Shown here in pieces: positions 2,708-61,096 of a DNA stretch of 64,000 bases. Source of the DNA: a virus; IMG/VR virus record IMGVR_UViG_3300024999_000081, positions 12,123-76,122 of that record; one strand, given 5' to 3'. Each line of letters opens with the position of its first letter. Within the stretch, counting starts at the first letter, position 1. Below the pieces are notes generated by a model. The model was given only the letters and a program-made list of their open reading frames with translations, searched no databases and was not told the DNA's origin. The position numbers and the translations under genes are program-made.

Positions 2708-5535
2708 AAAATATTAATAAAATTGAAGTAGGTATGAGGGTAAAACAAATTAAGGAGTTACCACGATTTAATTATATCGGTACAGAATTTGAGGTAACTG
2801 AAATTGTAGATTCAGTTGTAATGTGTAAAAATGGAATGATGGGATTTGGTTTATCTGAAAATGATTTCTTTGCATATTTTGAATCTGTTAAATCTGTCGC
2901 CAAACAAGAAATTGAGTTTATGACGATTGAAATTGTCGATGGTATCAAGACTACTAGAAAAGGATTATTAACTCTTGTAGAGCTTCCTAATGGATCTCAG
3001 GGTGCGTCTAAACCATTGCCTCAAGATAAATATGATGCTCAAAGAGGATACGATATTGCATTTCTAAAAGCAGATATTAGAGCTGATGAAAAAGTAATTA
3101 AGATGAAGAAAAGAAAATTAGAAGAGTTAAGAAAGTTTTAAGTAAAATATAGTATTGTGCTTTCTAGAAAACGTTGATATAAGCCACTTTTAGAAAGCAC
3201 AATATAAGATAAAACGAATCTTTCAAGGGATAAGAAAGGAGAATATCATGGCAGAATTTAAAATGGTTGATTTTGTTTGTTCGCTACAAATGCAAGTGAA
3301 GATTGAAGACAACGCTACAAATGAAGAAATTATTGATAGAATTGCAGAAACTTTTGAATTGGTTTGTGAATATGGATCAAGTGATTTTGATGAATCAGAA
3401 GAATTTTCAGCATACATAATCATGGATAATATACGGTTAATAGCAAGGGATAATTAATCGAATCAAAAACTGATTTCAAGGGTAAATAATATAAGAAAGA
3501 AGGAAAACTAAATTGAAGAAAATGCTTATTACTTTGTCATTAGGTTTGATTTTATCAGGAATCTTAACTGGATGTGGATCAGTTTCATATACGCCTCCTC
3601 CAGTTCCATCTGTACCACAATTTTCTTTCCCTGCGGAAAGCACATATGGTTCTGTAATTGATGTTGATTATGAGAAATCTGCCTTGGATTTTGTTGTGGT
3701 TAAATATCGAAAAGACGATGTATTAAATTTAGTCACGTATAAATTAGATTCAGTTCGAGGTTATACTAACTTAGAGTCAGTTATAACGATTCAAATCGGA
3801 AAATAAATATTAACATGAAAAAAGAATTTTAATGGATTTAGAAAGGAAAATAATATGTTAACTATACCAGAAGGAGCTATTGATATAAACTTAACAAATT
3901 TACAAATTGAAATTGGACAATATAGAAGGGCTGTAGAAACTTATTATAAAGCTCTTGGATTATATACATTAAAAGATGATGCAGAAATTAATTCGTTAAT
4001 GGAGATGAATCAGAAAATTATAAATTCAAAAAATAATTTAGTAAAAGCATGTCAACAATTTATTGATGAAGCCTAGCAAAAAGGAGTTTTAAACAATGCG
4101 TAGAGATCCAAAGAAACCATATACAATAAAAGGAATATACCCATTACTCTTTTGGCATAAGTGTGATATCTGTGGAGTTGAATTTAAAAGAGAATTTGGA
4201 TGGAAAATTAACTATTCTACTATATCTAGAATTATATGTTATGAATGTGCAAGATTTCATTTTGATGTAGAGAGGTTAGCTTTGACATGGGGTGAGTCAG
4301 GATGTGATAAACCTAGTATAAGAATTGGTAAATAAATGTACAGTTTTATTTGATGGAAATGAGTTGATTAATAATGATTAGAAAAACTCCATACTTATGT
4401 GAAATGTGCAAGAAGCATTTTGACGAACCAAATGTTGTTAAAGAAAAACATTGTGAATATAACGTATGCCCTCATTGTAATAGCAAGTGGATTACACAAC
4501 CATGTCATTGCACAAAATAATAATAATCATAACAAATGCAGTTTGAAAGGAGAATTTATGCAAGAAGACATTATTTACGTTGTCTATTTTGATGGAAAAA
4601 GATATGAAAAAGAAGGTTTAAAGATTGCTTACCTAAATAAAAGTTATGCAAAGCAAATTATTACTACTGAAGCTAAAAATAAAGCCAAAGATAAGTATGA
4701 TGAAGAAGTTACAAGTAAGGCGTTTAAATATTGGTATGAATTAACTGAGGAATTGCAAAGAGTGTTAATTAATGAAATGAAAGAAAGATTTACAATTGTA
4801 GAATATAAACCATGTTTGTAAATTTGGATGAATCATAATTAGGAGGATAGTATGAATAAATTTAAAAATTGGTTACGAATTAAACTAAGAGATTTTCTTG
4901 ACATAGGAAACCTTGAATCTAATTTTAAAGATCATGAAACATTTAATAGTATCAGATTTGCAGATATTGAAAGTGATATACATGATAAGTCTTCATATCT
5001 AAGAAAACTAATAAATAATTCTACAAACGATATTTCACATTGACAAGAATTTATAAATGTCTTACATAATACAATTGAAAATGTAGTACATATTGGTACG
5101 GATGTGGCTGTAAATCCTGATTATGGACGTAGTTGGGCAGTAGTGTGTATTGAGGGTAAATTAAATATAGTAAAGTTTGTAGATTTAGATAGAAGAGACG
5201 GAATGGAAGTTTTGAGATTCCTTAAACAATTTGAAGCAGGGAAACATTGTATAGATGCCCCTCATAAAGAATTTTTCTTAGAAGGTATTTTTAAATTTTA
5301 GATAGGTTAAAATCCAAATTTTCTGGGACTTTAGAAAGGAGTAATAATGAATAAAGAATATATGCCACTGTATGTAATTTATTATCATAATGAGATATCT
5401 GGAAAGTTTGAACCTTATCAAAGCGTATGTGGAATTACAGTTTTTTACATGGATATAAAAGATGCTAAAAAACAACTAAGAAAAATAACTAATTATCCAG
5501 AGAATTATGAAATAGTTGAATATGTAGCAAAATAA
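2701..5535 (+). other. Array of small phage accessory ORFs (2701-3141, 3248-3457, lipoprotein 3513-3806, 3855-4076, 4096-4335, 4558-4821, 5347-5535)
   Basis: Co-oriented short ORFs with AGGA/GGAG RBS; 3513 has lipobox LTGC. Confidence 0.65.
4852..5301 (+). pseudogene. Single ORF interrupted by in-frame TGA at 5041-5043
   Basis: 4852-5043 and 5104-5301 are in the same frame, the linker is open, and the second part has no clear RBS. Confidence 0.6.
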
Positions 5536-9938: not shown

Positions 9939-12900
9939 GAAGTAAGAAATAAATTATCTCTTTTAAATGAAAGGTGGTTAAAAAGTGGAAACGATTAATT
10001 TACAAGATAATCATAGAAAAGTTCTGAATAGCAAAATTACTAAAGCAATCAATTCTATACCAGATGAAACTATTCAAGAAATATTTTTAGATTATATTGC
10101 AAGCGAGATTGATAGTTTGTATTCTGAAAGTAATTTTCAAGACATTGTAGAATCTCAATTAAGAGAAATGATTAGAAACATGTTTATTGAAAAAGGATTG
10201 CTAAAATCAACAAAAATTGAGGAGAGTATTTAATTAATGAAAAAGAAAATAGAATTAACTTATCTAACCCCTTTAGAATTTATTGCTACATATACAAGAG
10301 AAGAATTTTTTAGAGGAGAGCATGATAGTGAAAGAAAATGGTTAGAAGAGGATGCAGGAATGCCTATATTAAATATTATTGCAAAAATTACAACTGGTAA
10401 TTATGATCAGTTTATTATGAAAACTTTTGATAAATTTGCTCCAAAGGTAGGGTTTTTATATTGTGGAGAACATGATATATTTCATGAATATGAAAAATGC
10501 CCATTCTGTCAATTAGGGATACGAGTTGATTAATAAAAATAAATATTAGGAGGAATGCATAAGATGGAAGAATTAAAGTTATATAAATTTAATGATGGTG
10601 ATTATGAGCATTGGATTTTAGCAAACAATCTTGTTCAGGCTATTGATTATTTTGTTCATGATTATTGTGGAGAGGATGAGTCTCAATTTGAATATGGATT
10701 TACTATTAGTTTAGTAGATGATGAAACATTAGATATTGAATTTGAGGATGAAGGGGAAAATACTTCTTGGAGAAAAATCATGAATGAGTGTGAAGTTATA
10801 CCAAATTGCATTGGAACAAATGTAGATTAATTTTCATATTTTTAGGAAGTTGCGATTCTAAGAATCAAGTTATAGGTTGGTTTCATGGTTCGTAACTTCC
10901 CATAAAAAGTCGATTTTAATGGAGTAGGAGGAGTAAAATGACAACAGTTAGAGATATTCAAAAAGATATTGCAGAATTATTAATATTCATTGCTGAATTT
11001 TATAATTTTGACGATGACGCAGGATTAACTGATATAGCATCAAGACTATATCAAATCACAGATAAAATGTAAGTATATTAAAAATTAGTTTGATGGCAAA
11101 GAAAGAAGGGAACTAAAAATGGGAATGTTTGATGCCTTTTATGGAGAAGTCCAATGTCCACATTGCAGAGATGTTCATAAATTTGAAGAACAAACTAAAC
11201 AATATGATTGTATATTAGCAGAATTTCTTATTGGCGATTATGTAGAAAAGGGTAATGCTAATTTTACATATAAATTTGAGTGGTTTTGTGAAAAAGATAG
11301 AGATAAAACATTTGATATTGGTATTGCTTTCCACAGAGGACAAATAGTTAAATTTTTAGTGAATGAAGAAATAGAAACTGTTAATCCTGAATTATTAGAT
11401 AATATTAAAGATGGTTTAGGCAGAAGGTTACTTTATGAAAAGAAATGTAGAAAAGCTGATGGTATTCCCAAAGAACATCTTGAGTATGAATTAAACCCAT
11501 TGTCAGAAGGATATAAATTTATTGCTTTTGAAGTTGAATGGGAAGTTATAAAACTTTATAGGCAGAAAGAGCATTGGATGTTTAATGGTATGGAATATTA
11601 TTATGAAATTAAATCCAAGGAGCATGGGACGAGAATCATGCATGCTTCAAAAAGATTTTGGGATAGTGGTATGGAGATTATAACTTTCAACCATGCCAAT
11701 AAATATAAGTCTCTATATTTTGATGAATAATCCTAGCAAAATTCCATTTTATCGTACAAATAAGGAGGAAACAATAATGAAAATTGAAATACAAACTTCT
11801 CAAATAAGTGAACAGTATATTAAAGACACATTTAGCCAATATACAGAAGTATATCAAATGCCTAAACTAATTAAAGGAAGATGCATATTTCATATGTATC
11901 CTTATCAAGATACAACAAATGAAGATGGTAGTTTAGTAGGATATAATGATGCAATGTTATTCAACTTACATATTTATGATATTGAGAATATGAATGTTTG
12001 GAAAACAAGCAATAAAGATTCACTTGATATTGATGTTCCTTGTAAAATTAGGATATTCAAAGATTTGAGTACAATGGTAGTTATTGATGGTGGAGTTGAA
12101 CTACATTCATTTCAAGCATTTGAAGTCTGTAAAATAGGAAAATATGATAGAATATAAAATAGTATATGAAGTGATTAGAAAGGAAGAAAACAACAATGAA
12201 AATGTGGGCTTGTACTTATCAATATGAAGAAGATTATTTTCATGATTTTGCAAAAAATGATATTACATATGGAATTGAACCTACTCAATTGCTACCAACA
12301 AAAAAAATTAGCAGAACAAATGATTGAAGATTTATTGAGTGATGATTATGTTCCTGTTGAAATTGAAATATATAGCTATAAAGAGAAAGGTGTATTGTCT
12401 TATAGTATTGGTAGAGTGGATATGTGGGGCAGAAGATAATGAATGGGAGGATGATGAATAAATGGATATTCTAAACTTACATACAAACGTATATGATTGT
12501 TACACCAACAAAGTAAAAGGAAATAAACTTCTTACATATGAAATGGTTCAGAAGAAACTCACCAGAAACTATCACTTATCAAAGAAAGTAAAATTAGGTT
12601 CACAAGAATTATGCCTATATGGATGCCTTACCTTTCTAGTAAGTGAAAATTGTGTCTTATGGTTAAAGAATTACATAGGAACAGATACCTCTTGGTTTGT
12701 TAAGGATATCAAGAAGTACAACAAACTCAATGAGCAATTAGGAATTGACAATAATGCAAAAGAATTTAAACTTGACTAAATATGAAAATAATTATATAAT
12801 GAAAGAGGAATAATGAATTGGCTGAAATGATATTATCATATCTTAAAAAGGAAGCAGATAAAGAAGTTATAAGAAAAGCTAAAGCAAAAGAGCAAGATAT

Positions 12901-18470: not shown

Positions 18471-19217
18471 ATGAATGAATTTATAAACAATATTCTTATC
18501 AATCTACATCACTTCAATCTTGCGGAACTAAAAATGGTATTTCAAAGTCCTCAAGATATACTCCTGATACTTTCTCTAGTTGTTATGGAAGTTATCTTAT
18601 CTGTTGATAATGCTCTTGTGTTGGCGATTATGGTGAAAAATCTTCCAAAGAAGCAACAAAAATTGGCGTTAACGTTGGGTATTGCTGGTGCTTATACATT
18701 TAGATTGATAGCAATTGTTCTTGGGGTATATTTAGTTAAGATTGCTTGGATTAAGTTGGTTGCTTCATTGTATCTTGCTTACATAGTGTTTAATTTCTTC
18801 AAAAATAAAGATGAAAATCACGATGAAGTCAATGATGCTTTGCAAAAAGGGTTGCTTGCAACAATCGTATCAGTAGAACTAGCCGATATTGCTTTTAGTA
18901 TTGATTCAGTAGTTGCAGCATTCGGAGTATCAGATATACCTTGGGTAATTCTAATTGGTGGAATGGTTGGTATTTTATGCATGAGGGAAGTTGCTCAAGT
19001 ATTTGTGAAATTAATCGAGCGTGTTCCAGAGTTAAATTATACTGCTCATATTTTAATTGGGATTGTTTCACTAAAAATGTTTGTTGGTGTATTTGGTATC
19101 GAAGCCCCTGATTGGTTATTTTTAAGCACGCTATTTACTACTTTTATTGGTACATTCGTAGTTCATAGATTTAGAAAGTCATCGAATGGGAGTGGGACTA
19201 ATGAAAAATACGTTTAA
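18471..19217 (+). CDS. terC: TerC-family integral membrane protein
   Basis: EVILSVDNALVLA and ADIAFSIDSV motifs; multiple TM helices. Confidence 0.92.
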   Translation: MNEFINNILINLHHFNLAELKMVFQSPQDILLILSLVVMEVILSVDNALVLAIMVKNLPKKQQKLALTLGIAGAYTFRLIAIVLGVYLVKIAWIKLVASLYLAYIVFNFFKNKDENHDEVNDALQKGLLATIVSVELADIAFSIDSVVAAFGVSDIPWVILIGGMVGILCMREVAQVFVKLIERVPELNYTAHILIGIVSLKMFVGVFGIEAPDWLFLSTLFTTFIGTFVVHRFRKSSNGSGTNEKYV

Positions 19218-49342: not shown

Positions 49343-49741
49343 TTACTCCCTTTCTTCCATCATTTTTTCATATAATTTATCTGCACTAATTACCCCTTCT
49401 TTAAAAGATTGTTCAACAATTTCTGTCTCTTCTGAACATAGAAAAATCATCTTTTTGATATTGCCATTTACACCTGCACTAGCTGTCCACACATAACCAT
49501 TCTCTTCTAGCCAATTTAAACCATTGATACAAGATTGGCGAGATAGTCCTGTAAGTTTAATCAATTGAGATATACTGATCCAATCTCCTGTCTTGGCAAA
49601 ACCCCATGTTTTTCTAATCATCAATAAATAAACCTTTAAAGCAGAGAAATTACTTATTCTAGGTATTAACTCGTCAAATACAATATTAGGGACTTCCATG
49701 TAATTCTTCTGTGGTTTTGGCAATCTAAACATGTTTATCAT
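49343..49741 (-). CDS. Small winged-HTH replication initiator (lambda O N-terminal-like)
   Basis: YMEVPNIVFD, LKVYLLMIRKTWGF...DWISISQLIKLTGLSRQSCINGLNWLEENGYV. Confidence 0.75.
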   Translation of the reverse strand: MINMFRLPKPQKNYMEVPNIVFDELIPRISNFSALKVYLLMIRKTWGFAKTGDWISISQLIKLTGLSRQSCINGLNWLEENGYVWTASAGVNGNIKKMIFLCSEETEIVEQSFKEGVISADKLYEKMMEERE

Positions 49742-51147: not shown

Positions 51148-51197
51148 TGATTAATTCCTCCTAAATTTGTTTTTGGATTTTAGGTTATATGAAATAT

Positions 51198-51260
51198 GTT
51201 TACATTTTAGGTGGATATAACGGTAGGTTTACGTTGTTTACAAGTAAACATTTGTTTACA
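51198..51260. repeat. Five GTTTAC boxes (one inverted) between the divergent kfrA-like and parM genes
   Basis: GTTTAC four times and GTAAAC once within 63 bp. Confidence 0.6.
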
Positions 51261-51422: not shown

Positions 51423-52277
51423 ATGGTTCAAGTAATACCTATTGATACGGGCCGAAGTTCTACTAAACTTATAAATGGAGTGTCTTTTAGATCAGTGGTT
51501 GGTGAATGGCATCATAGAGAAATTTCTGATAATGAGGAATACGAAGTAATTATTGATGGTGAAAAGTATTTTGTTGGTCAGCTTGCCATAGATGAATCAA
51601 TTGCCCCAGTGGAATTTAATACATCTTCGAAGATAACCAATGAGAACAAAGTCCTTTTTCTAACTGGTGTTGCTCTATCGGCAGTTGAAAATGATGAAGA
51701 TACTAGTCTTTTTGTTGTAACTGGTGTACCTGTTGATATGTTTAATGTGGCAACAAAGACTGCATTAGAAAACTTATTATATGGAGAGTATAATATTAGA
51801 GTTAATGATAAACATATCAAGAAGTTATGTATTGATAGTGTTACAATTGTCCCTGAAGGGGTCGCAGCTTATCAATATCAATTATCTAAAGATGATAGTT
51901 TAAGACTTGGCAAAAAGAGAATAATTGATATTGGTTCTCTCACAGTGAATTTTTCGACAATATCAGACACTAAGTTCATTAATCGTGACTCAGGAACTCT
52001 GGCGTTCGGCATGATCAAGATCAGAGGAAATCAGGTTAGCAATGAACAGTATGTAAAACGTATTATCGCGGAATTATCTCAGAAATTCAGTGATTATGAC
52101 CCTTCTGATCGCGTATTACTTACTGGTGGCGGAGCTTTGCAATTTAGTGAATTATTTAGAAAACATTATAAGAATTTAGAGATAATTGATAATCCTGTAT
52201 TTGCTAATACTCTTGGGTATTATAGAATGGGTGTGAGTAGATGCATCAAGGAGAACATGAAAGTAAAAGCAGAGTAA
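51423..52277 (+). CDS. parM: ParM/StbA-family actin-like segregation ATPase
   Basis: IDTGRSSTK, YFVG, VTGVP, IVPEG, IIDIGSLT, LLTGGGA, FANTLGYY. Confidence 0.88.
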   Translation: MVQVIPIDTGRSSTKLINGVSFRSVVGEWHHREISDNEEYEVIIDGEKYFVGQLAIDESIAPVEFNTSSKITNENKVLFLTGVALSAVENDEDTSLFVVTGVPVDMFNVATKTALENLLYGEYNIRVNDKHIKKLCIDSVTIVPEGVAAYQYQLSKDDSLRLGKKRIIDIGSLTVNFSTISDTKFINRDSGTLAFGMIKIRGNQVSNEQYVKRIIAELSQKFSDYDPSDRVLLTGGGALQFSELFRKHYKNLEIIDNPVFANTLGYYRMGVSRCIKENMKVKAE

Positions 52278-52486
52278 GAAGAAAAGTTGTTTATTTTAAT
52301 TTGGAAGATGAAGACGAGTTAATACTTTTTGAAAAAGCAACTAAAATGAATAATTTTAGTAAATGGGTTAAAAAGTGCCTCATTAATAATGGGAAGAACG
52401 TAATAAAAGAACCAATTATTGAGCAACCTAAGATTGAAAGAAAGACGAGGATAGAGAAAGATGATTTTGAAGATATAATGATGTGA
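52241..52486 (+). CDS. ParR-like centromere-binding adaptor
   Basis: Overlaps the parM end; KVVYFN...NFSKWVKKCLI RHH-like; acidic tail. Confidence 0.65.
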   Translation: MHQGEHESKSRVRRKVVYFNLEDEDELILFEKATKMNNFSKWVKKCLINNGKNVIKEPIIEQPKIERKTRIEKDDFEDIMM

Positions 52487-52741: not shown

Positions 52742-52984
52742 ATGCTCAATAAAGTAGAAGTAGAAATATTGCAACATATGTTGCAAAACAAATTAACCGA
52801 TCAAATCAATAGTCGTACTATCCGTAATATCAGTAAGGGGATTGAGATTAATTATTTCAGAACTAGAAATTATGTAAATCACTTGAAACTTCTTGGGTTA
52901 TTGGACTCTGGATTTAAGGAGTTGAACAGTGGAACTTTTTACATTACTAAAAAAGGGGTTGAAATTATCAATGAAAAAACCTGA
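52742..52984 (+). CDS. Winged-HTH protein
   Basis: TIRNISKGIEINYFRTRNYVNHLKLLGLL...FYITKKG. Confidence 0.75.
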   Translation: MLNKVEVEILQHMLQNKLTDQINSRTIRNISKGIEINYFRTRNYVNHLKLLGLLDSGFKELNSGTFYITKKGVEIINEKT

Positions 52985-53637: not shown

Positions 53638-53762
53638 ATTAATTACCTCCTTCAAATTTTCAATTATTTTTCGTTTAATAAATTAAATGATTTCTTGCTC
53701 ACGACCATGATTGTATTGTGTCCTAAATCAATTAATTTATACATGGGAAGGAAGATTAATTT

Positions 53763-53885
53763 ATGAAAATTTTAGAGACTTTGTTGAATATTGCTTCATA
53801 TGCATTTCTAGCAATGTTTTGTGTCACTGTTGTAAAAATCGGAATGAAACTTTGTGGAATTAGAATTTTTGGCAATAAAAACTAG
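53763..53885 (+). CDS. 40-aa single-TM peptide
   Basis: MKILETLLNIASYAFLAMFCVTVVKIGMKLCGIRIFGNKN. Confidence 0.45.
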   Translation: MKILETLLNIASYAFLAMFCVTVVKIGMKLCGIRIFGNKN

Positions 53886-53904: not shown

Positions 53905-54135
53905 ATGCTAGTAGAACCTTTCAGACAAAGCATTCTGCCTATTTTAGTTCAGATTGGCATGGTAATGGTGATATACTCTGTTACTGTTTTAGGATATCAA
54001 CAAATCAGGCGACCAGATATGGTTCAAATGATTGAAAAATTAAGAGGATTATTATTCGGATTTCTTCTGGTTAAATGTAGTTATTTAGCTGTAATGTTTA
54101 TCAATAATACTGTAGATAAAATCGTATTAAAATGA
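53905..54135 (+). CDS. VirB2/TrbC-like pilin-type membrane protein
   Basis: AAGGAGG RBS; two TM segments joined by a ...MIEKLRGLLFGFLLV loop. Confidence 0.5.
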   Translation: MLVEPFRQSILPILVQIGMVMVIYSVTVLGYQQIRRPDMVQMIEKLRGLLFGFLLVKCSYLAVMFINNTVDKIVLK

Positions 54136-54136
54136 G

Positions 54137-54493
54137 GTGACATTAATGGCAGGAAGTATTTTAAAAGATTTCTTTATTCCAAATCCTAATTTCAATTCAA
54201 TGCCTGAAGAAAATTTTATTGAACGTGGAATATCATCTGGCATCGAAAAAGGCATGGGGAAGGTTGGTGAGAATCTTCTCCATGCAGGTCAAGTTAAAAC
54301 AAGATCGTTTGCTGAAAACCTTCCAGAACTTGCATCTTTGGCAATGATTAGTTATTTAATATATTTAGGTTATATGTCATTTATAAAAAATGGTAAAACC
54401 GTAGAAGTTGAAGCATTATTTCAAAAAATATATCCTGCTTTTATGATATATATTATTTTCAAACTGTTTTTTAGAGTTGTATTAAAAATTTAA
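54137..54493 (+). CDS. Two-TM membrane protein
   Basis: Hydrophobic C-terminal half; translationally coupled to neighbours. Confidence 0.65.
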   Translation: MTLMAGSILKDFFIPNPNFNSMPEENFIERGISSGIEKGMGKVGENLLHAGQVKTRSFAENLPELASLAMISYLIYLGYMSFIKNGKTVEVEALFQKIYPAFMIYIIFKLFFRVVLKI

Positions 54494-54505
54494 GGAGTGA
54501 TAATT

Positions 54506-56911
54506 ATGGAACAAAATACATTGATTAATTTTAGAAAAAAGGAAATTGTCCCAAGATTAAAGAAAGAAACTTTTGATTATAAAGTATTTGAAGTTACTCC
54601 TAGTAGATTTATAGAATCTGGAAAATCAATCGAGTCTATTCTTGACACAATTCATGCAATTAGCGAAGGGAAGGTTAAGTATGATTATTTAAACAAAAAT
54701 ATTGTTATCAATCAATCAAGTCCTATTTATTATGAAATTTTATTTGAAGGTAAAAATATTAAATTTAATTATGTTATTCCAGACAAATATACTGTGGTAT
54801 TAGTAAATAAAATTGATAAAGTATTTAGAGTTGCAGCAGTTAAAGAAATTGAAGATTATTTTCCTCAATTTGTTAATAAATATTATTGCACATTTTCACA
54901 GAAAAAACACTTTATGTTCTCATTGAACTCAAATTACACAGATAATACAGGATTATTGGATAATTTATTATCTGTTATTAATTCGGTATTGCCAGAGGAT
55001 AAAGTTTTATTGCAGTTGGGCGTATTACCATTACATGAAAAATGGAAAGAGAATTGGGGCAAAGCGAATATTAAACATAAAAATGGAGAAGAATTACCAG
55101 TTCATCCTAGCACAATTATTGCAGTTGCAGAAAAATTAATTGGAAGTGTTGAAGGATTTTTAGATTTATTAGATGTGGCTATTGGAGTTGATAAAAAAGA
55201 AAAAGAAGCATATTCAAAGAAAACAAAACAAGTTGAAAAATGGGGTAATAATGTTTACAGGAATGCTCATATGTCAACTCAAAAAGTTACATTTAATGGA
55301 TTTGAGACTCAAATTAGGGTTTATTGCACAAGTGAAGAAAGGACTAGGTATTATCAAAAGACATTTTCTGGAGTATTTAAAATATTAGATGGAGAGCAGG
55401 AATTAGAGTTTATTGATGTTGGAAAACATAAAGGAAATAAAAGAGAATTTATTAAGAGATTGACTGGTAAGAATATTTTTTGTACAAAGGAATTAGTGAG
55501 TTTCTTAAAATTACCGGATAGAAGGATGCAGATGGATTTCAAGAGTGCAATGAAGAATACAATTGAGAATACTGAGAATAAGATTCCTATTGAATTAAGA
55601 GAGGGTGGTAAAATTAAAATTGGTGACGCTAGTTTTAAAGGAACTAAAATTCCAACGTATTTTCCCACAGAATATTCCATGAATGCAATTGTAAAGGTTA
55701 TTGTAGCTCCAGTTAGAGCAGGTAAGACCGAAAAAACTAAGCATTTTATTCTTGAAGCAATTAAAGCAGGAGATAGTGTTATTTGTATAGATACAATTAA
55801 AAATTGTGAAATTGTAGAAGATGTTAGAGATCATATGCCAGAAGAATTTAAGGATAAGTTAGTGATATTGGATTACAGCAATATTAGACAAAGACTTCCA
55901 TTGGATTTTAATGAATTACTTAATGTTGAAACAAAAGATCATATAGATGAAATGATGTTAGCTAGTCATTTAACCTCTTCTCTTTGTGGATTTGTAAATG
56001 CTGTATCAGGATTTGATTCTGAAGGGGAACTTAAACCAAGAATGAAAAGATTTTTAAGTATAGCAGGAAAGATTGTTTTATCCCAAAAGGGAAGCACTCT
56101 TAAGGATGTTTTTGATGTTTTACAAGAATTTGATATTAGAGAAAAATTTATCAAATCATCTGGATTACCAGAAACCAATAGTATGATTCAACAATTAAGA
56201 TTGTTAGACGATGGAAAAGGGGGAACAAATTATTCTATGGTGTCAGGTATCCTAGATAGGGCAAGTGCAATTATGAATGATTATATTTCAGAAACACTTC
56301 TTTCTACGCCTTCTAATCCAGAAATTAACTTTACTAAATTTGCTAATGAGGGGAAATGCGTTTTAATTAAAATGAGCGATAGCGTATTTGATTTAGAAGT
56401 ATTAAAACCTATGGTGACATTCATGTATTTCAAGATTTGGTTAGCTCTTGCTACCGCTAGGTCTAAAACTAAAAATCCTAGAATGTGCCATGTCATATTA
56501 GATGAAATACACAGACTACCAGAGGTTGCTAGTTTCTTATCATCAAAGGCAAAGGAGTCTCCAAAATTTGGATTGAGCTATGTGATCACATCCCATTATT
56601 TACCAGATATGAAAAGGCTCTTGCCTAATTTAAAATCTGCTCAAGCGAATTTTATGTTTCTTGGTGGAGCAAGTAAGGAAAATTTCAAGTTATTAGAAAC
56701 TGAATTGATGCAAGGTAACATATCAATTGAAGAAGCAATGGAGACTAAACCTTTTCACGCTCTCAATATCATAAATTTTAATAGAGAATATGCAATATTT
56801 ACAACCAAGTCATATCCTGAGTGGAAGAAATGTGGATGGTTAAAAAAAGTAGATAGGAGTTATTTAGATTTAGAACATTCAATGAAATATGGTTTACCAT
56901 TTGAAGGTTGA
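54506..56911 (+). CDS. VirD4/VirB4/HerA-FtsK-superfamily P-loop ATPase
   Basis: Walker A VAPVRAGKT, VICID, Walker B VILDEIH, KESPKFGLSYVITSH. Confidence 0.75.
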   Translation: MEQNTLINFRKKEIVPRLKKETFDYKVFEVTPSRFIESGKSIESILDTIHAISEGKVKYDYLNKNIVINQSSPIYYEILFEGKNIKFNYVIPDKYTVVLVNKIDKVFRVAAVKEIEDYFPQFVNKYYCTFSQKKHFMFSLNSNYTDNTGLLDNLLSVINSVLPEDKVLLQLGVLPLHEKWKENWGKANIKHKNGEELPVHPSTIIAVAEKLIGSVEGFLDLLDVAIGVDKKEKEAYSKKTKQVEKWGNNVYRNAHMSTQKVTFNGFETQIRVYCTSEERTRYYQKTFSGVFKILDGEQELEFIDVGKHKGNKREFIKRLTGKNIFCTKELVSFLKLPDRRMQMDFKSAMKNTIENTENKIPIELREGGKIKIGDASFKGTKIPTYFPTEYSMNAIVKVIVAPVRAGKTEKTKHFILEAIKAGDSVICIDTIKNCEIVEDVRDHMPEEFKDKLVILDYSNIRQRLPLDFNELLNVETKDHIDEMMLASHLTSSLCGFVNAVSGFDSEGELKPRMKRFLSIAGKIVLSQKGSTLKDVFDVLQEFDIREKFIKSSGLPETNSMIQQLRLLDDGKGGTNYSMVSGILDRASAIMNDYISETLLSTPSNPEINFTKFANEGKCVLIKMSDSVFDLEVLKPMVTFMYFKIWLALATARSKTKNPRMCHVILDEIHRLPEVASFLSSKAKESPKFGLSYVITSHYLPDMKRLLPNLKSAQANFMFLGGASKENFKLLETELMQGNISIEEAMETKPFHALNIINFNREYAIFTTKSYPEWKKCGWLKKVDRSYLDLEHSMKYGLPFEG

Positions 56912-56929
56912 TAAAGGTAGGTGATTATT

Positions 56930-57463
56930 ATGGCAATTGCTAATTATCCGATTACAACACATTTTTATCAAATAGATTCTATGCACCCTAAAATTCCTCA
57001 TTCCGGCACAGATTATGCCCTGCCACAGAATACACCATTAGAAGCAATTTCAGATGGGATTATCACAGGAGTATCAACTAATGAAATGCTAGGCAACAAC
57101 ATACGTTACAAGACTCCTAATGGAGAAGTAATTGTCTATGGTCATCTATCCTCATTTAAATCTAAAGTAGGAGATGTGATTCATAAAGGTGATATTATTG
57201 GGTATTCTGGGGGAGATCCTAAGATACAACCATCTGGTCATTCCAATGGAAGTCACTTGCATTTGAGCGTTTATAGTAGAGATGGGATTCTTGTTAATCC
57301 TGAACCATATGTATTAGGGCAAGTACAAACAAATAATCATAGTTCATTTTTATTTCCTACGATATTAATTTTATTATTATTTATTACATGGAAATTTAGA
57401 CGAACATTTATATATAGTATATTAATTATGTTGGGATTACTTGTAATATTTATTGTATCTTAA
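56930..57463 (+). CDS. M23-family peptidoglycan endopeptidase with C-terminal TM anchors
   Basis: HSGTD, YGHLS, GDIIGYSG, GSHLHL; two C-terminal hydrophobic segments. Confidence 0.88.
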   Translation: MAIANYPITTHFYQIDSMHPKIPHSGTDYALPQNTPLEAISDGIITGVSTNEMLGNNIRYKTPNGEVIVYGHLSSFKSKVGDVIHKGDIIGYSGGDPKIQPSGHSNGSHLHLSVYSRDGILVNPEPYVLGQVQTNNHSSFLFPTILILLLFITWKFRRTFIYSILIMLGLLVIFIVS

Positions 57464-57759: not shown

Positions 57760-59328
57760 ATGATTTTTAAATTCGATAAAAGTGGAAATATGGAAAATAT
57801 AGGAATGGAAGGAGATATACAGGATATGACAAGGAAGGGTAATAAGGATAAAGACAGAGAAAGGTTTAATCAAATGGATATGAATGTGGTCAATCAAGTT
57901 AAGGAAGAGGTAATTAATGCAATGAGCGAAACTGCTGCAGGATTTGAGAGTCTGGATGAAATTATTGGTGATGAAGATATGGTTCAAAAACATGAAATGG
58001 AATTGGTTAAGGAAATGGATGCGGAAGTAGATGATGAAAAATTAAAGCAACAAATGAGGGAATTGAATATGCGGAATATGCCTAGCTTGAGTAATTTGAA
58101 TAGAATGAAAGATGAAGGGGATGGGAAGGAAAGTGAAACTGACAAAGAGCAGATTCCGAAGGAAGAATTTAATGAAGAATACAGTGATACTCAAAGGAAG
58201 AAAGATGAATTAGCGAAGAAAAGGGAACTACGCAAACTCAAACAAGAATTAAAACAAAATGACTTAAAATTAAAAGAAAGTACAAGTTGGTCATTCTCTC
58301 CGGTTATTCCTGTTTATAATCAAGGAGAAATTACTAAGTATATTTGTACAATCTCTTCATTTGACCTTGCCTCCTACTTTGAAAATTTTATTATTCGTTT
58401 CATTCCTAGCATTCAGAGGGGAAGCGTTGTGACACCATCGGGGAAAGAAAAAGACAATTTCTCCAATAAACATGTAAATGATATTTTTCAAGCTTTTACA
58501 CAAAAGAAAATTTTTGGAAATACAATTGTCTTAAATTATTCAACGAGCAACGAATCAGATTTAGTGTATAATCAAGAGGACAATAGTATTACAGGAGAAG
58601 GATATTTACAGGGAATAGATTTTAGTCACCGTGCTAGAGCTTCCATAAAATGGAAAAACGCTTGGATTAAACATCCAGACCAATATGATGATCCTAGACA
58701 ATTTTATTTTAATTGCGAAGTAAATGTGGTATCTGACGAAGATGCGAGACAAATGTTCGCGGAATTGAACAATTTTTCGCTTAGAGTCAACCCCACAAGA
58801 ACACATTATCTTGATAATAGTAATTATGCTAACAAAATTGCAAGAAGAATTGAAAAAGAGTCTGATTTAAAAAACAAAATCGAAACAGTTAGCACAACAA
58901 TCAAGAGTTCCAGCCCTAATGTTTGCAGTTATGGAGTTTTAACGAATGCAATCAAAAAAAATTATAAAGAGCCTCAAACTAAATTAGAACAAACGAATGT
59001 TGAAAATTGGTTAATAGAGTATGTCGATGAATTAGTATCTATCTTCCCTCAATTTATGGCTAATTCTGATTTAGAGTCTAAAAACAATTTAAAGAAACAA
59101 TATTTCACAATCGAACCTTTAGCAATTGGTGCAATGATAGCATTGAGTGCAGTTTTAAAGGATGATTCAGACTGGAAAATTAAACTTGCTAAATTAACTG
59201 AAAATGATTTCTTTTTAAGAACTGCAAGTCGATGGAGGCCAGTCCTTAAAGAAGGAGGGAAAATTATCAATGGCACATCAAGTGTTAAGCATTTTAATGA
59301 GACTGTAATTAATTGGTGTACTAAATAA
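57760..59328 (+). CDS. DndB/DGQHR-like (ParB/Srx-related) protein with acidic coiled-coil N-terminus
   Basis: IQRG, TIVLN, GIDFSHR (DGQHR variant), ARQMFAELN. Confidence 0.7.
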   Translation: MIFKFDKSGNMENIGMEGDIQDMTRKGNKDKDRERFNQMDMNVVNQVKEEVINAMSETAAGFESLDEIIGDEDMVQKHEMELVKEMDAEVDDEKLKQQMRELNMRNMPSLSNLNRMKDEGDGKESETDKEQIPKEEFNEEYSDTQRKKDELAKKRELRKLKQELKQNDLKLKESTSWSFSPVIPVYNQGEITKYICTISSFDLASYFENFIIRFIPSIQRGSVVTPSGKEKDNFSNKHVNDIFQAFTQKKIFGNTIVLNYSTSNESDLVYNQEDNSITGEGYLQGIDFSHRARASIKWKNAWIKHPDQYDDPRQFYFNCEVNVVSDEDARQMFAELNNFSLRVNPTRTHYLDNSNYANKIARRIEKESDLKNKIETVSTTIKSSSPNVCSYGVLTNAIKKNYKEPQTKLEQTNVENWLIEYVDELVSIFPQFMANSDLESKNNLKKQYFTIEPLAIGAMIALSAVLKDDSDWKIKLAKLTENDFFLRTASRWRPVLKEGGKIINGTSSVKHFNETVINWCTK

Positions 59329-59384: not shown

Positions 59385-61096
59385 TTATTTGCTATTTTCT
59401 AAATATTCATCATAGTACATCCATATAAGAGGTTCATTAGTGATGGGGTGCTTACCTGCAGAATTCTTTTTATTTCTACAGCATTTACTTAAATCACTAT
59501 GATCAACTTTAAATTTTTTTGATATTTCTGATTGTTTATTAAAAATCTCTCCAGTTGTGACACAAATAATTTTTCTATTTATAGAATCCAATATATCTTT
59601 AATTTCTTTTTCACTTTTTAAAATATAGTCTTCATAATACATCCATATAAGTTTAGTTCCATCTGGAAGTTTACCTGCTGATTTCTTTTTATCATCACTA
59701 CAACATGCAGATATACTTGGACTTCCAACATTATATTTATTTGATGCATCCCTTAAACTATTAAATATTTCTTTAGTTGTTAAACATACTACTCTATGAC
59801 ATACCTCTTCTTGTGGATTATAATTGCACCATCCTAATTCCACTCCTTGTTTTAAATATCTTCCAACGGACTGTAGACTAATTTTTAATATTTCGCTAAT
59901 TTTTACTGTTTTATAAATTCCTTGATTCCAAATTTCACAAACTGTTTTTACTAAACTCTTACATCCTGTTTCGTAGCAATTTAACCAATCTATATCATCT
60001 TCTGAGAAATTAAACAATTGTGGTAATTCGCTATTCATTATACTATTTTTAATCCATTCCAAATTAGAATATCTACAGTCTAAAATTATGTAAGTTATGT
60101 TATTATTTTTAGCTAATTGTTCTTTAATAGCATCGTTGTTTTGTATTTCGTTTAATGAACCCCATGATTTTTTCTCTTCATAATGCTGTATCCCATGTGT
60201 TTCTATTATACAATGTTCGCTATTAATATAAAAATCATACTTATAGTCTTTACACCACTCAAAAGTAGTTTTTGATAATTGAATTTGGAATAATACTTTT
60301 AGTTGTTCTAAAAAACTAAAGAAAAAACGTTCTGGAAAACTAATACCATCCCCGCATTTCGGACAGCCAAATCCTTGACTTATTAAACTATAAATTCTCA
60401 GATTTTTATCATAGCCACAATCTGGACACTTCATAGGAATTTTATTATGATACCCCACAGAATATTTTGAAGCATCTTCCATATTTACTAAATATTTTAC
60501 TAAATATGGATGAGTCATTGCTACAGTGTTACATTGATTACAGGTAATATTTAATGGATGCTTACTGCTATTAGTAAAACTACCTATATTTTTTGCTCTG
60601 ATCCATGCTCTGGATGTTTCAAACATTTAAACCAGTAACCTTTGCCATCTATGCCAGTTGAACCATAAGTAACATCTTTAGGACTTAATTTGTTTCCGTT
60701 TTTATCAATGTTTAGATTATAATCCCATCTAGATAATAATAAATTTGCTTCTTCCTTTGATAAATTTATATAGCACCATTCTTCAAAAGAAATATATTTT
60801 TTATATTTTCCTTTCTTAGAACATTTCTGACAATAGTATTCTCCATTGTCTTTTACATATCTATTATAAACTTCCCAATTTATTTGTCTTGGTGTGCTAC
60901 AACCATCACATTCAATATCAATAGACACTTCAGAACCTTTTGATAAATCATTAACATTAACCAGTATTTTTGTCCCTCTTTTTATTTTATTTCTTCCTTT
61001 ATTATCTATGTATCTAGATATTTTATAGTCTTTATCCTCATAGTATTTTGAATTTCTAGAACTTACTTCTACTTCAACCTCTTTTGTTATTAACAT
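59385..61096 (-). pseudogene. Zn-ribbon / PD-(D/E)XK(Vsr-like) / NUMOD1-repeat homing endonuclease, frameshifted near 60590
   Basis: 60584-61096 and 59385-60626 join at an A-tract (HGSEQK|NIGSF); CPKCGDGISFPE, YDFYI..IIETHGIQHY; two C.TT.EIFN repeats. Confidence 0.7.

Follow-up and report, generated by a model that had tools for sequence, protein, structure and literature searches.

A predicted type IV secretion-derived ATPase module found in phages and plasmids of endospore-forming bacteria, and its variant with a wall peptidase in a viral metagenomic record

In phage SPP1, genes 31.1 and 31.2 encode membrane proteins, and the product of gene 32 has a C terminus resembling TrwB, VirB4, and FtsK. 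Genes 31.2 and 32 are early genes dispensable for plaque growth in the laboratory, and gp31.1, gp31.2, and gp32 have been proposed to form a membrane translocon, the role of which "remains to be established" (Godinho et al. 2018, PMC6316719). In phage SPO1, which encodes a set of the same kind, genomes are trapped in spores, and the ParM gene 27.9 has been named as a possible factor (PMC12991052, 2026). The core gene set has been in the literature since 2018 without an assigned function. Here we describe a variant of it in a stretch of 64,000 nucleotides (nt), positions 12,123 to 76,122 of the IMG/VR virus record IMGVR_UViG_3300024999_000081, which we call the window. The identification of this locus as a membrane-associated ATPase module derived from the type IV secretion system (T4SS), of the SPP1 gp31-gp32 and SPO1 gp27.8-gp27.4 kind, in a clostridial variant with a wall peptidase, is one that we hold with high confidence; the use to which the module is put is a more tentative matter.

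The module comprises five co-oriented and tightly packed genes between positions 53763 and 57463, as follows.

53763..53885, + strand: first gene of the operon, a membrane protein of 40 amino acids (aa) with a single helix, present in 7/7 related loci and provided with a ribosome-binding site
53905..54135, + strand: orfA, 76 aa, a two-helix hairpin with the basic loop QIRRPD by hydrophobicity and topology
54146..54493, + strand: orfB, 115 aa, a soluble N-terminal part followed by two C-terminal helices, conserved in the related contigs
54506..56911, + strand: soluble ATPase, 801 aa, matching phrog_5156 over residues 14-801 (E 5.5e-101)
56930..57463, + strand: M23 metallopeptidase, 177 aa, PF01551 (E 4e-18, 65.8 bits)

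The spacing within the operon is 10-19 nt, with gaps of 10, 12, and 18 nt along the series orfA-orfB-ATPase-M23, and each of these four genes has a GGAGG-type ribosome-binding site 6-9 nt ahead of its ATG. The gene order of the whole set is kept in seven related viral contigs (34-82% identity), which shows that the set is not a product of chance. An earlier note on this DNA, written from the letters alone, had described a coupled four-gene module. The four genes are real and their coordinates have been refined, while a fifth, the co-oriented gene for the 40-aa protein, had been omitted, and the coupling takes the form of tight packing without any overlaps. The 40-aa gene and a divergent 31-aa open reading frame (ORF), listed below, are new additions to the described set.

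The ATPase is homologous over its whole length to SPP1 gp32 and SPO1 gp27.4. It aligns with SPP1 gp32 in hhalign over 765 columns (probability 100%, E 6e-74), and the family PF26449 (DUF8128, a name from Pfam 38) is precomputed for this very protein; we found no mention of DUF8128 in the literature. The family is large, with 2460 clusters at 50% identity reaching an E value of 0.001 or better and 268 reaching 1e-30; a scan of genome contigs returned only one 3.7-kb contig, from a metagenome-assembled genome. The Walker A motif, APVRAGKT, had been called atypical in the earlier note and is in fact the A variant of the canonical [AG]xxxxGK[ST], the family consensus being GxQRxGKT. Since none of K407 (Walker A), D666 and E667 (Walker B), and R585 varies among 49 diverse members, the protein looks, from its sequence, enzymatically active.

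Structure prediction places this enzyme within the VirB4/VirD4 clade. With 23 homologues as input, AlphaFold2 gave a model whose pLDDT (the predicted per-residue confidence) averages 80, and its C-terminal domain (residues 355-781) matches VirB4 (4ag5, Z 25.9), TrwB/VirD4 (Z 25.1), the C-terminal domain of DndH (Z 25.1), DotL (Z 23.7), and HerA (Z 22.6), with much weaker likeness to FtsK (Z 15.6) and to TcpA, a coupling protein of clostridia (Z 15.8). The N-terminal 350 residues, modeled alone, gave one clear match, the N-terminal domain of TrwK/VirB4 (7o42_A; Z 12.0, root mean square deviation 4.3 Å over 218 residues, Foldseek E 6e-4), the next match having a Z score of 7.8. This predicted match to a VirB4-type N-terminal domain is a new finding, and it is good but not final because the pLDDT of the separate model is only 60. 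At the sequence level, Protein Data Bank (PDB) searches with the protein and with a close-family profile retrieved nothing, and a wider family profile recovered weak, P-loop-centered matches to TrwB (4.6e-5), HerA (7e-4), and VirB4 (0.05). The Pfam model TrwB_AAD_bind scores 17.0 bits on the ATPase, below its cutoff of 20.5, and matches 13/49 relatives at E values up to 0.01; AAA_10 and CagE_TrbE_VirB do not match the ATPase, and AAA_10 is found in 1/49 family members (E 0.003). Taken together, the fold matches and the weak sequence leaning to TrwB indicate that the ATPase is a separate lineage of the VirB4/VirD4 clade, more VirB4-like than FtsK-like. This corrects the label VirD4/HerA-FtsK-type given earlier: the C-terminal domain has a fold like those of VirB4, TrwB/VirD4, DndH, and HerA (Z 22-26), and the protein does not belong with FtsK/SpoIIIE.

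The ATPase has no hydrophobic segment at the threshold used, in keeping with the earlier remark that a transmembrane segment is missing. Across 181 family members, most likewise lack a hydrophobic window; where one is present it is single and internal rather than N terminal, and no N-terminal fusion to a membrane segment was seen in the longer members. At residues ~200-235 of the ATPase (window positions ~55100-55210), the model has a low-confidence helix between the halves of the N-terminal domain, which in many family members counts as hydrophobic, with scores of up to 2.0, and could be a membrane-docking or partner-binding element.

The small proteins encoded upstream are less readily connected to known families. 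Neither orfA nor orfB belongs to a family in Pfam, NCBIfam, or PHROG or has an Atlas neighbor, and orfA, which is pilin-like by topology only, has no leader and no TrbC signal. The soluble part of orfB has a conserved NFIERGISxGIEKG segment, and the protein is the positional counterpart of SPP1 gp31.2 and Wes44 gp19, and, like them, it has an NLP[ED] motif ahead of its first helix. When orfA and orfB were compared by hhalign with the small proteins encoded by SPP1, SPO1, Wes44, and the plasmids, no match reached significance, the best being that of orfB with SPP1 gp31.2 (E 0.003); BLASTP of a window small protein against the TrbC protein of pCLK gave E 4.1. Across the family, the small membrane proteins in fact fall into several unrelated sequence families. 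A complex prediction for the ATPase with orfB scored 0.00 in both runs, which is not evidence either way.

The M23 protein is what sets the clostridial variant apart, and by adding a wall hydrolase, this variant makes a role at the envelope more explicit. Its zinc-binding and catalytic motifs (H27-x3-D31, H75, and H112-x-H114) do not vary among seven homologues. As had been proposed from the letters, it lacks a signal peptide and ends in a two-helix hairpin, both helices of which are invariant in the same seven homologues. The loop between these helices reads KFRR in the window and KFRK in most relatives. By the positive-inside rule this KFR[KR] loop would be cytoplasmic, which would place the enzyme domain outside the membrane.

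Two genes upstream of the operon and one downstream of it are as follows.

51423..52277, + strand: actin-like Alp/ParM protein, 284 aa, PF17989 ALP_N (E 4e-22) and phrog_691 partition protein (E 3e-48)
52241..52486, + strand: ribbon-helix-helix (RHH)-type DNA-binding adaptor, 81 aa, in the ParR position and overlapping the end of the Alp gene
57760..59328, + strand: DndB-like protein with a ParB fold, PF14072 (E 1.9e-17) and phrog_5732

The module does lie beside a ParM-like gene and the gene for a plausible ParR-type adaptor, in line with the first description. The Alp protein is 28.5% identical to D6E ORF22, itself encoded upstream of a homologous ATPase gene, and Alp genes adjoin the module in the window, in two of the related loci (L008 and L010), in SPO1, in CP-51, and in D6E. 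The RHH protein, for which a role as a ParR-type adaptor is plausible, retrieves SPP1 gp31 (E 7e-5) and an unannotated D6E ORF (E 1.3e-6) in BLASTP and has a weak match to MobC_2 (E 0.019). This apparent link between SPP1 gp31 and the gene in the ParR position is new. Since RHH homologues are common to the window, SPP1, D6E, and the Terrisporobacter phage, a DNA-binding adaptor accompanies the ATPase even where no Alp gene does. The DndB-like gene follows the module in all six related loci long enough to reach it, although its membership in the module is uncertain. The DndB-like protein is DGQHR-related and has a long acidic and basic N-terminal region; its presence next to an ATPase whose C-terminal domain is like that of DndH may be a coincidence or a functional pairing.

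Searches with tblastn against named phage and plasmid records recovered homologues of the ATPase in 102 of the former and 56 of the latter, these being counts of records without host denominators. Genes for small membrane proteins lie directly upstream of the ATPase gene in all of the cases looked at, namely, in SPP1, SPO1, CP-51, Wes44, and a Terrisporobacter phage and likewise in pCLK, a Clostridium tetani plasmid, and D6E. In SPO1 and CP-51 the Alp gene comes first and is followed by genes for a small DNA-binding protein, three very small membrane proteins, and the ATPase, with that for a Replic_Relax protein directly downstream of the last. Two temperate phages, D6E and TPDSL_ph2 of Terrisporobacter, have the module between the lysis genes and the integrase, and in D6E it is preceded by the Alp gene and by genes for an RHH protein and a pilin-like protein, neither of which is annotated in the public record. 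In the D6E locus (L017), the RHH gene occupies positions 4333-4512 and that for the TrbC/VirB2-like pilin positions 4636-5016. The latter, a predicted gene that is new, overlaps the start of the ATPase gene, and its product is homologous to that of the pCLK neighbor (E 1e-22), which overlaps the ATPase homologue in its turn and passes the Pfam TrbC/VirB2 cutoff (28.5 versus 27.9 bits).

The closest likeness is thus to SPP1 genes 31-31.1-31.2-32 and SPO1 genes 27.9-27.3, which share with the window the full-length soluble ATPase and the small membrane-protein genes directly upstream; SPP1 further shares the RHH protein, as gp31, and SPO1 the adjacent Alp gene. The window differs from both in adding the M23 peptidase, the 40-aa membrane protein, and the DndB-like neighbor, whereas SPO1 has a Replic_Relax protein instead of the DndB-like one, and the part of SPP1 that was inspected contains no Alp gene. 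Among secretion ATPases, VirB4 (TrwK) is likewise a soluble, two-domain protein of ~800 aa, and the VirB4/VirB3/VirB2 arrangement, in which small two-helix proteins are followed by the ATPase and a wall hydrolase (VirB1) belongs to the set, recalls that of the window. The window module departs from VirB4 systems in lacking a Pfam VirB4 signature and in profiles that lean to TrwB (4.6e-5 versus 0.05), and from conjugative T4SSs in its phage setting and in that no VirB6, VirB8, VirB10, VirD4, or relaxase was found. With VirD4/TrwB, the ATPase shares a nucleotide-binding domain with an inserted helical domain (Z 25.1) and the weak TrwB_AAD_bind signal, which in some relatives exceeds the threshold, but it lacks an N-terminal anchor and a relaxase partner and has an extra 350-aa VirB4-like N-terminal domain. 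These relationships support descent of the module from type IV secretion, on the strength of the VirB4-like N-terminal domain, the VirB4/VirD4-like C-terminal domain, and the TrbC/VirB2 neighbors of homologues.

SpoIIIE/FtsK, Streptomyces TraB, and Thermus TdtA are members of the HerA-FtsK superfamily that work as single ATPases without a relaxase. The comparison with such pumps that had been drawn for this locus is not upheld; the ATPase is no pump of the SpoIIIE/FtsK or TraB type and differs from SpoIIIE/FtsK pumps in lacking the FtsK_SpoIIIE family (PF01580) and a membrane domain of its own and in its weaker fold likeness to them. By description, the crenarchaeal Ced system for DNA import is also similar, in that a VirB4/HerA-like ATPase, CedB, works with the very small CedA1/A2 proteins and no relaxase, but it is archaeal and includes the polytopic CedA.

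The host distribution of the homologues is consistent with a connection to sporulation. The phage records are from Bacillus, Geobacillus, Lysinibacillus, Clostridium, Alicyclobacillus, and Terrisporobacter, and the plasmid records are from Clostridium, Bacillus, Alicyclobacillus, and Laceyella. With SPP1 gp32 as the query, the host pattern is the same, with the addition of Brevibacillus, D6E, and one Microcystis record. The phages of Enterococcus and Leuconostoc, which are abundant in the same phage library, yielded no homologue. The named records with homologues therefore come almost only from endospore formers, across two classes of Bacillota whose nonsporulating members are skipped, as the earlier note had thought might be the case. 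We regard this pattern as suggestive.

From the genes, their conservation and homologies, the predicted folds, the active-site residues, and the host distribution, we infer a complex that acts on DNA in a sporulating cell. The soluble, ring-type ATPase would dock on a platform of the 40-, 76-, and 115-aa membrane proteins, the membrane-tethered and catalytically intact M23 peptidase would open the peptidoglycan locally, and the RHH protein homologous to SPP1 gp31 would, with the Alp filament, bring phage DNA to the machine. Of the functions considered, the most likely is that this DNA would then be moved or handed across the membrane or septum of the sporulating host, so that the genome ends in the forespore (a "virospore"). 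DNA is the most likely cargo because of the shared RHH adaptor, the recurrent Alp neighbor, and the Replic_Relax gene in SPO1, and the sporulation septum is the most likely place because of the host pattern. Taken as a whole, with module identity and DNA transfer in a sporulating host combined, the explanation is a tentative one. Transfer into the forespore is plausible, being compatible with all of the observations made from these sequences, but as the specific function of the module it is somewhat unlikely. The most explicit version, a relaxase-free, phage-built conduit in which an unintegrated genome is brought by RHH and Alp to the asymmetric septum and its VirB4-like motor, M23 thins the septal wall, and the genome enters the forespore, is doubtful.

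Several considerations weigh against DNA transfer of this kind. VirB4 proteins are thought to energize the assembly of the pilus or channel rather than to pump DNA, and translocation by members of the family is so far a proposal. There being no polytopic VirB6-like channel, the pore would have to be made from proteins of one or two helices, and no sequence relation could be detected between the small membrane proteins of the window and those of SPP1, SPO1, and the plasmids. Only the clostridial lineage has the M23 gene. The dispensability of the SPP1 genes fits an accessory role and gives no function. On the side of sporulation, more distant relatives with the same domains are found in nonsporulating Actinomycetota and Saccharimonadota, the host pattern could reflect gene flow inside one phage pool, and the Spo0A box TGTCGAA occurs in 4 copies against 3.3 expected, i.e., at chance frequency.

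The strongest rival is a role in handling pilins or other membrane proteins, in which the ATPase would extract two-helix proteins or assemble them into a surface fiber or envelope complex and the resulting structure would alter the cell surface, for example, in phage or plasmid exclusion, clumping, or protein export. The specific match of the N-terminal domain to VirB4 speaks for it, as do the TrbC/VirB2-type genes directly upstream in pCLK and D6E and the leader-like segment followed by two helices in SPP1 gp31.1, Wes44 gp20, Terrisporobacter CDS24, and a C. tetani protein of 129 aa. The SPP1 genes, early and dispensable (PMC6316719) as those of a moron would be, and the accessory slot between lysis genes and integrase in temperate phages also fit. 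Yet the absence of a leader and TrbC signal from orfA of the window runs counter to it, and the conserved RHH partner, the Alp genes, and the Replic_Relax gene point to DNA instead. There was also no match to known defense families, PADLOC returning only a weak P-loop match to mad8 that indicates no defense system. Assembly and surface alteration, taken jointly, are in our estimate unlikely; intracellular DNA handling and lysis rank lower.

An intracellular alternative is a membrane-anchored segregation or processing motor that tethers, resolves, or positions replicating phage DNA together with Alp, with no transfer across the membrane. The location of the module inside a replication and partition region, next to the Alp and RHH genes, and the DndB-like or Replic_Relax genes downstream accord with this, and HerA-clade ATPases pair with nucleases in DNA processing, the fold matches of the ATPase also taking in HerA-NurA, DndH, and TdpAB. 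Such a motor would nevertheless leave the intact peptidoglycan peptidase in the operon unexplained, as well as the pilin-type neighbors and the VirB4-type N-terminal domain, and we think it distinctly unlikely.

The third alternative, closest to the transfer between cells proposed in the earlier note, is a conjugation-like, virion-free spread of the phage genome in a plasmid state through a minimal single-ATPase channel without a relaxase. Here the nature of the element matters. The record has a length of 76,122 bp and a completeness of 45% (CheckV), and the window takes up its right-hand 64 kb. The window has a G+C content of ~28% and consists mostly of a phage block for replication and nucleotide metabolism (DnaB-type helicase, DNA polymerase, exonucleases, Dda-like helicase, and ribonucleotide reductase). 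A related record of 153,759 bp, 92% complete, encodes portal, terminase, tape-measure, and tail proteins (PHROGs), and the lineage is therefore one of true tailed phages, even though the Pfam models Terminase_6N, Phage_sheath_1, and Phage_capsid had no match in the five records made up of the window's own and its relatives. The virion genes of this relative and the Rep_O-like and Alp genes of the window would also be expected in a phage-plasmid, and the tyrosine recombinases and Alp system of relatives would fit a plasmid prophage. The plasmid state of the window phage is nonetheless an assumption only, and the designation phage-plasmid is weakened, given the incompleteness of the record and the fact that Alp also adjoins the module in the strictly lytic SPO1 and CP-51.

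T4SS ancestry, the wall hydrolase in the gene set, and the Replic_Relax protein of SPO1 and CP-51 might be taken to favor conjugation. A scan of the 76-kb record and four relatives (the 92%-complete record and others that are partly incomplete) with eight Pfam families, however, gave no match to Relaxase, Mob_Pre, MobA_MobL, Rep_trans, or Replic_Relax or to T4SS-DNA_transf, AAA_10, or FtsK_SpoIIIE; the blank for Replic_Relax carries no weight, since that search was also silent in every control genome. In all, no relaxase of six families, coupling protein, VirB6, or VirB8 was found, the last two by inspection of the record and the relative, as the VirB6 and VirB8 Pfam models were not run. Only one T4SS-type ATPase was found in the window's record and in the 92%-complete relative, and the sole polytopic membrane proteins are a TerC protein encoded 35 kb away and an acyltransferase in that relative. 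The earlier statement that a relaxase and a second T4SS ATPase are missing from the window thus extends to the whole record and its relatives, and a full T4SS with a relaxase elsewhere in the genome was found neither in the record nor in the 92%-complete relative. The search for relaxases in so nearly complete a relative is a further new element.

Homologues of the ATPase are, in addition, carried by large Clostridium plasmids reported to transfer, but the papers on these plasmids assign transfer to a different large region (PMC5814558), and 48 of the 56 homologue-bearing plasmids are typed as nonmobilizable in PLSDB. The core module also occurs both in lytic phages (SPP1, SPO1, CP-51, and Wes44) and in integrating temperate ones (TPDSL_ph2 and D6E, in the lysis-integrase slot), so that plasmid-like conjugation is unlikely to be its general job, contrary to what had been envisaged. 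We consider spread of this kind very unlikely, and the interpretation first placed on the locus is, overall, partly supported.

Finally, an accessory role in lysis, with M23 as a membrane-tethered second endolysin, the small proteins as holin-like factors, and the ATPase as a functionally unrelated neighbor, is highly improbable: M23 domains do occur in phage endolysins (PHROG matches), the small hydrophobic proteins are of holin size, and the SPP1 operon also holds the lysis genes 25 and 26 (PMC6316719), but the small-protein and ATPase genes stay linked in many phages without an M23 gene, and the module lies in an early or replication region, with the late genes a long way off in the near-complete relative.

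Other features around the operon include the following.

49343-49741, - strand: Rep_O-like protein, 132 aa, phage replication protein O PF04492 (E 3e-9)
51196..51260, strand not assigned: GTTTAC(A) motif in four to five copies in both orientations, upstream of the Alp gene
52742..52984, + strand: winged-helix regulator, 80 aa, PF14947 (E 4e-7), with homologues upstream of the module in related loci L005-L010
53545..53637, - strand: divergent hydrophobic ORF, 31 aa, with a GGAGG site (tblastn E 1e-6 to 4e-13)
53690..53755, + strand: conserved intergenic motif CACGACCATnnTTGTA ... TATACAT, from an alignment of eight loci, unique in the window

The intergenic motif, laid out as TTTCTTGCTCACGACCATnATTGTA, ~25 nt, and TATACAT directly ahead of the first operon gene, is a probable promoter or operator. 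It could not be assigned to any sigma factor, nor by eye to one of sporulation; a sigma-70 scan was uninformative because the DNA is too AT rich, and there was no Rfam match around the operon leader. The 31-aa ORF is found in the same relative position in 7/7 related loci (identity 55-89%) and is transcribed away from the operon; its product may serve as a small membrane toxin, as a regulator, or as a further part of the module. The GTTTAC repeats may be a candidate centromere or operator. The Rep_O-like protein, whose gene adjoins the Alp locus, shares 72% identity with the corresponding protein of the 154-kb relative. Farther away, the replication region includes the gene for the TerC-family integral membrane protein (18471-19217, + strand; PF03741, E 3e-48). 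A homing-endonuclease-like gene at 59385-61096 (- strand) is divided into two frames of 413 and 170 aa that overlap at 60584-60626; it is intact as a single ORF of 511-615 aa in related loci L004, L006, and L008 and is probably a frameshifted or decaying gene. The public sequencing runs that contain the stretch are DNA runs of groundwater metagenomes from two studies, with no RNA run listed among them.

The gp32-type ATPases constitute a large family with members in textbook phages such as SPP1 and SPO1, and the functions given to them have so far been proposals. Published explanations of how the genomes of lytic phages enter spores rest on the host Spo0A and on Par-like elements. A phage-encoded, secretion-type motor that is, in the named records, nearly confined to sporulating hosts is a concrete and genetically tractable candidate for this step. 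If the conduit proposed here exists, spore carriage would be an active process that phages themselves encode and that many phages and plasmids of endospore formers have in common; if the module instead remodels the cell surface or acts in exclusion, it would represent a working derivative of a type IV secretion ATPase smaller than any other known.

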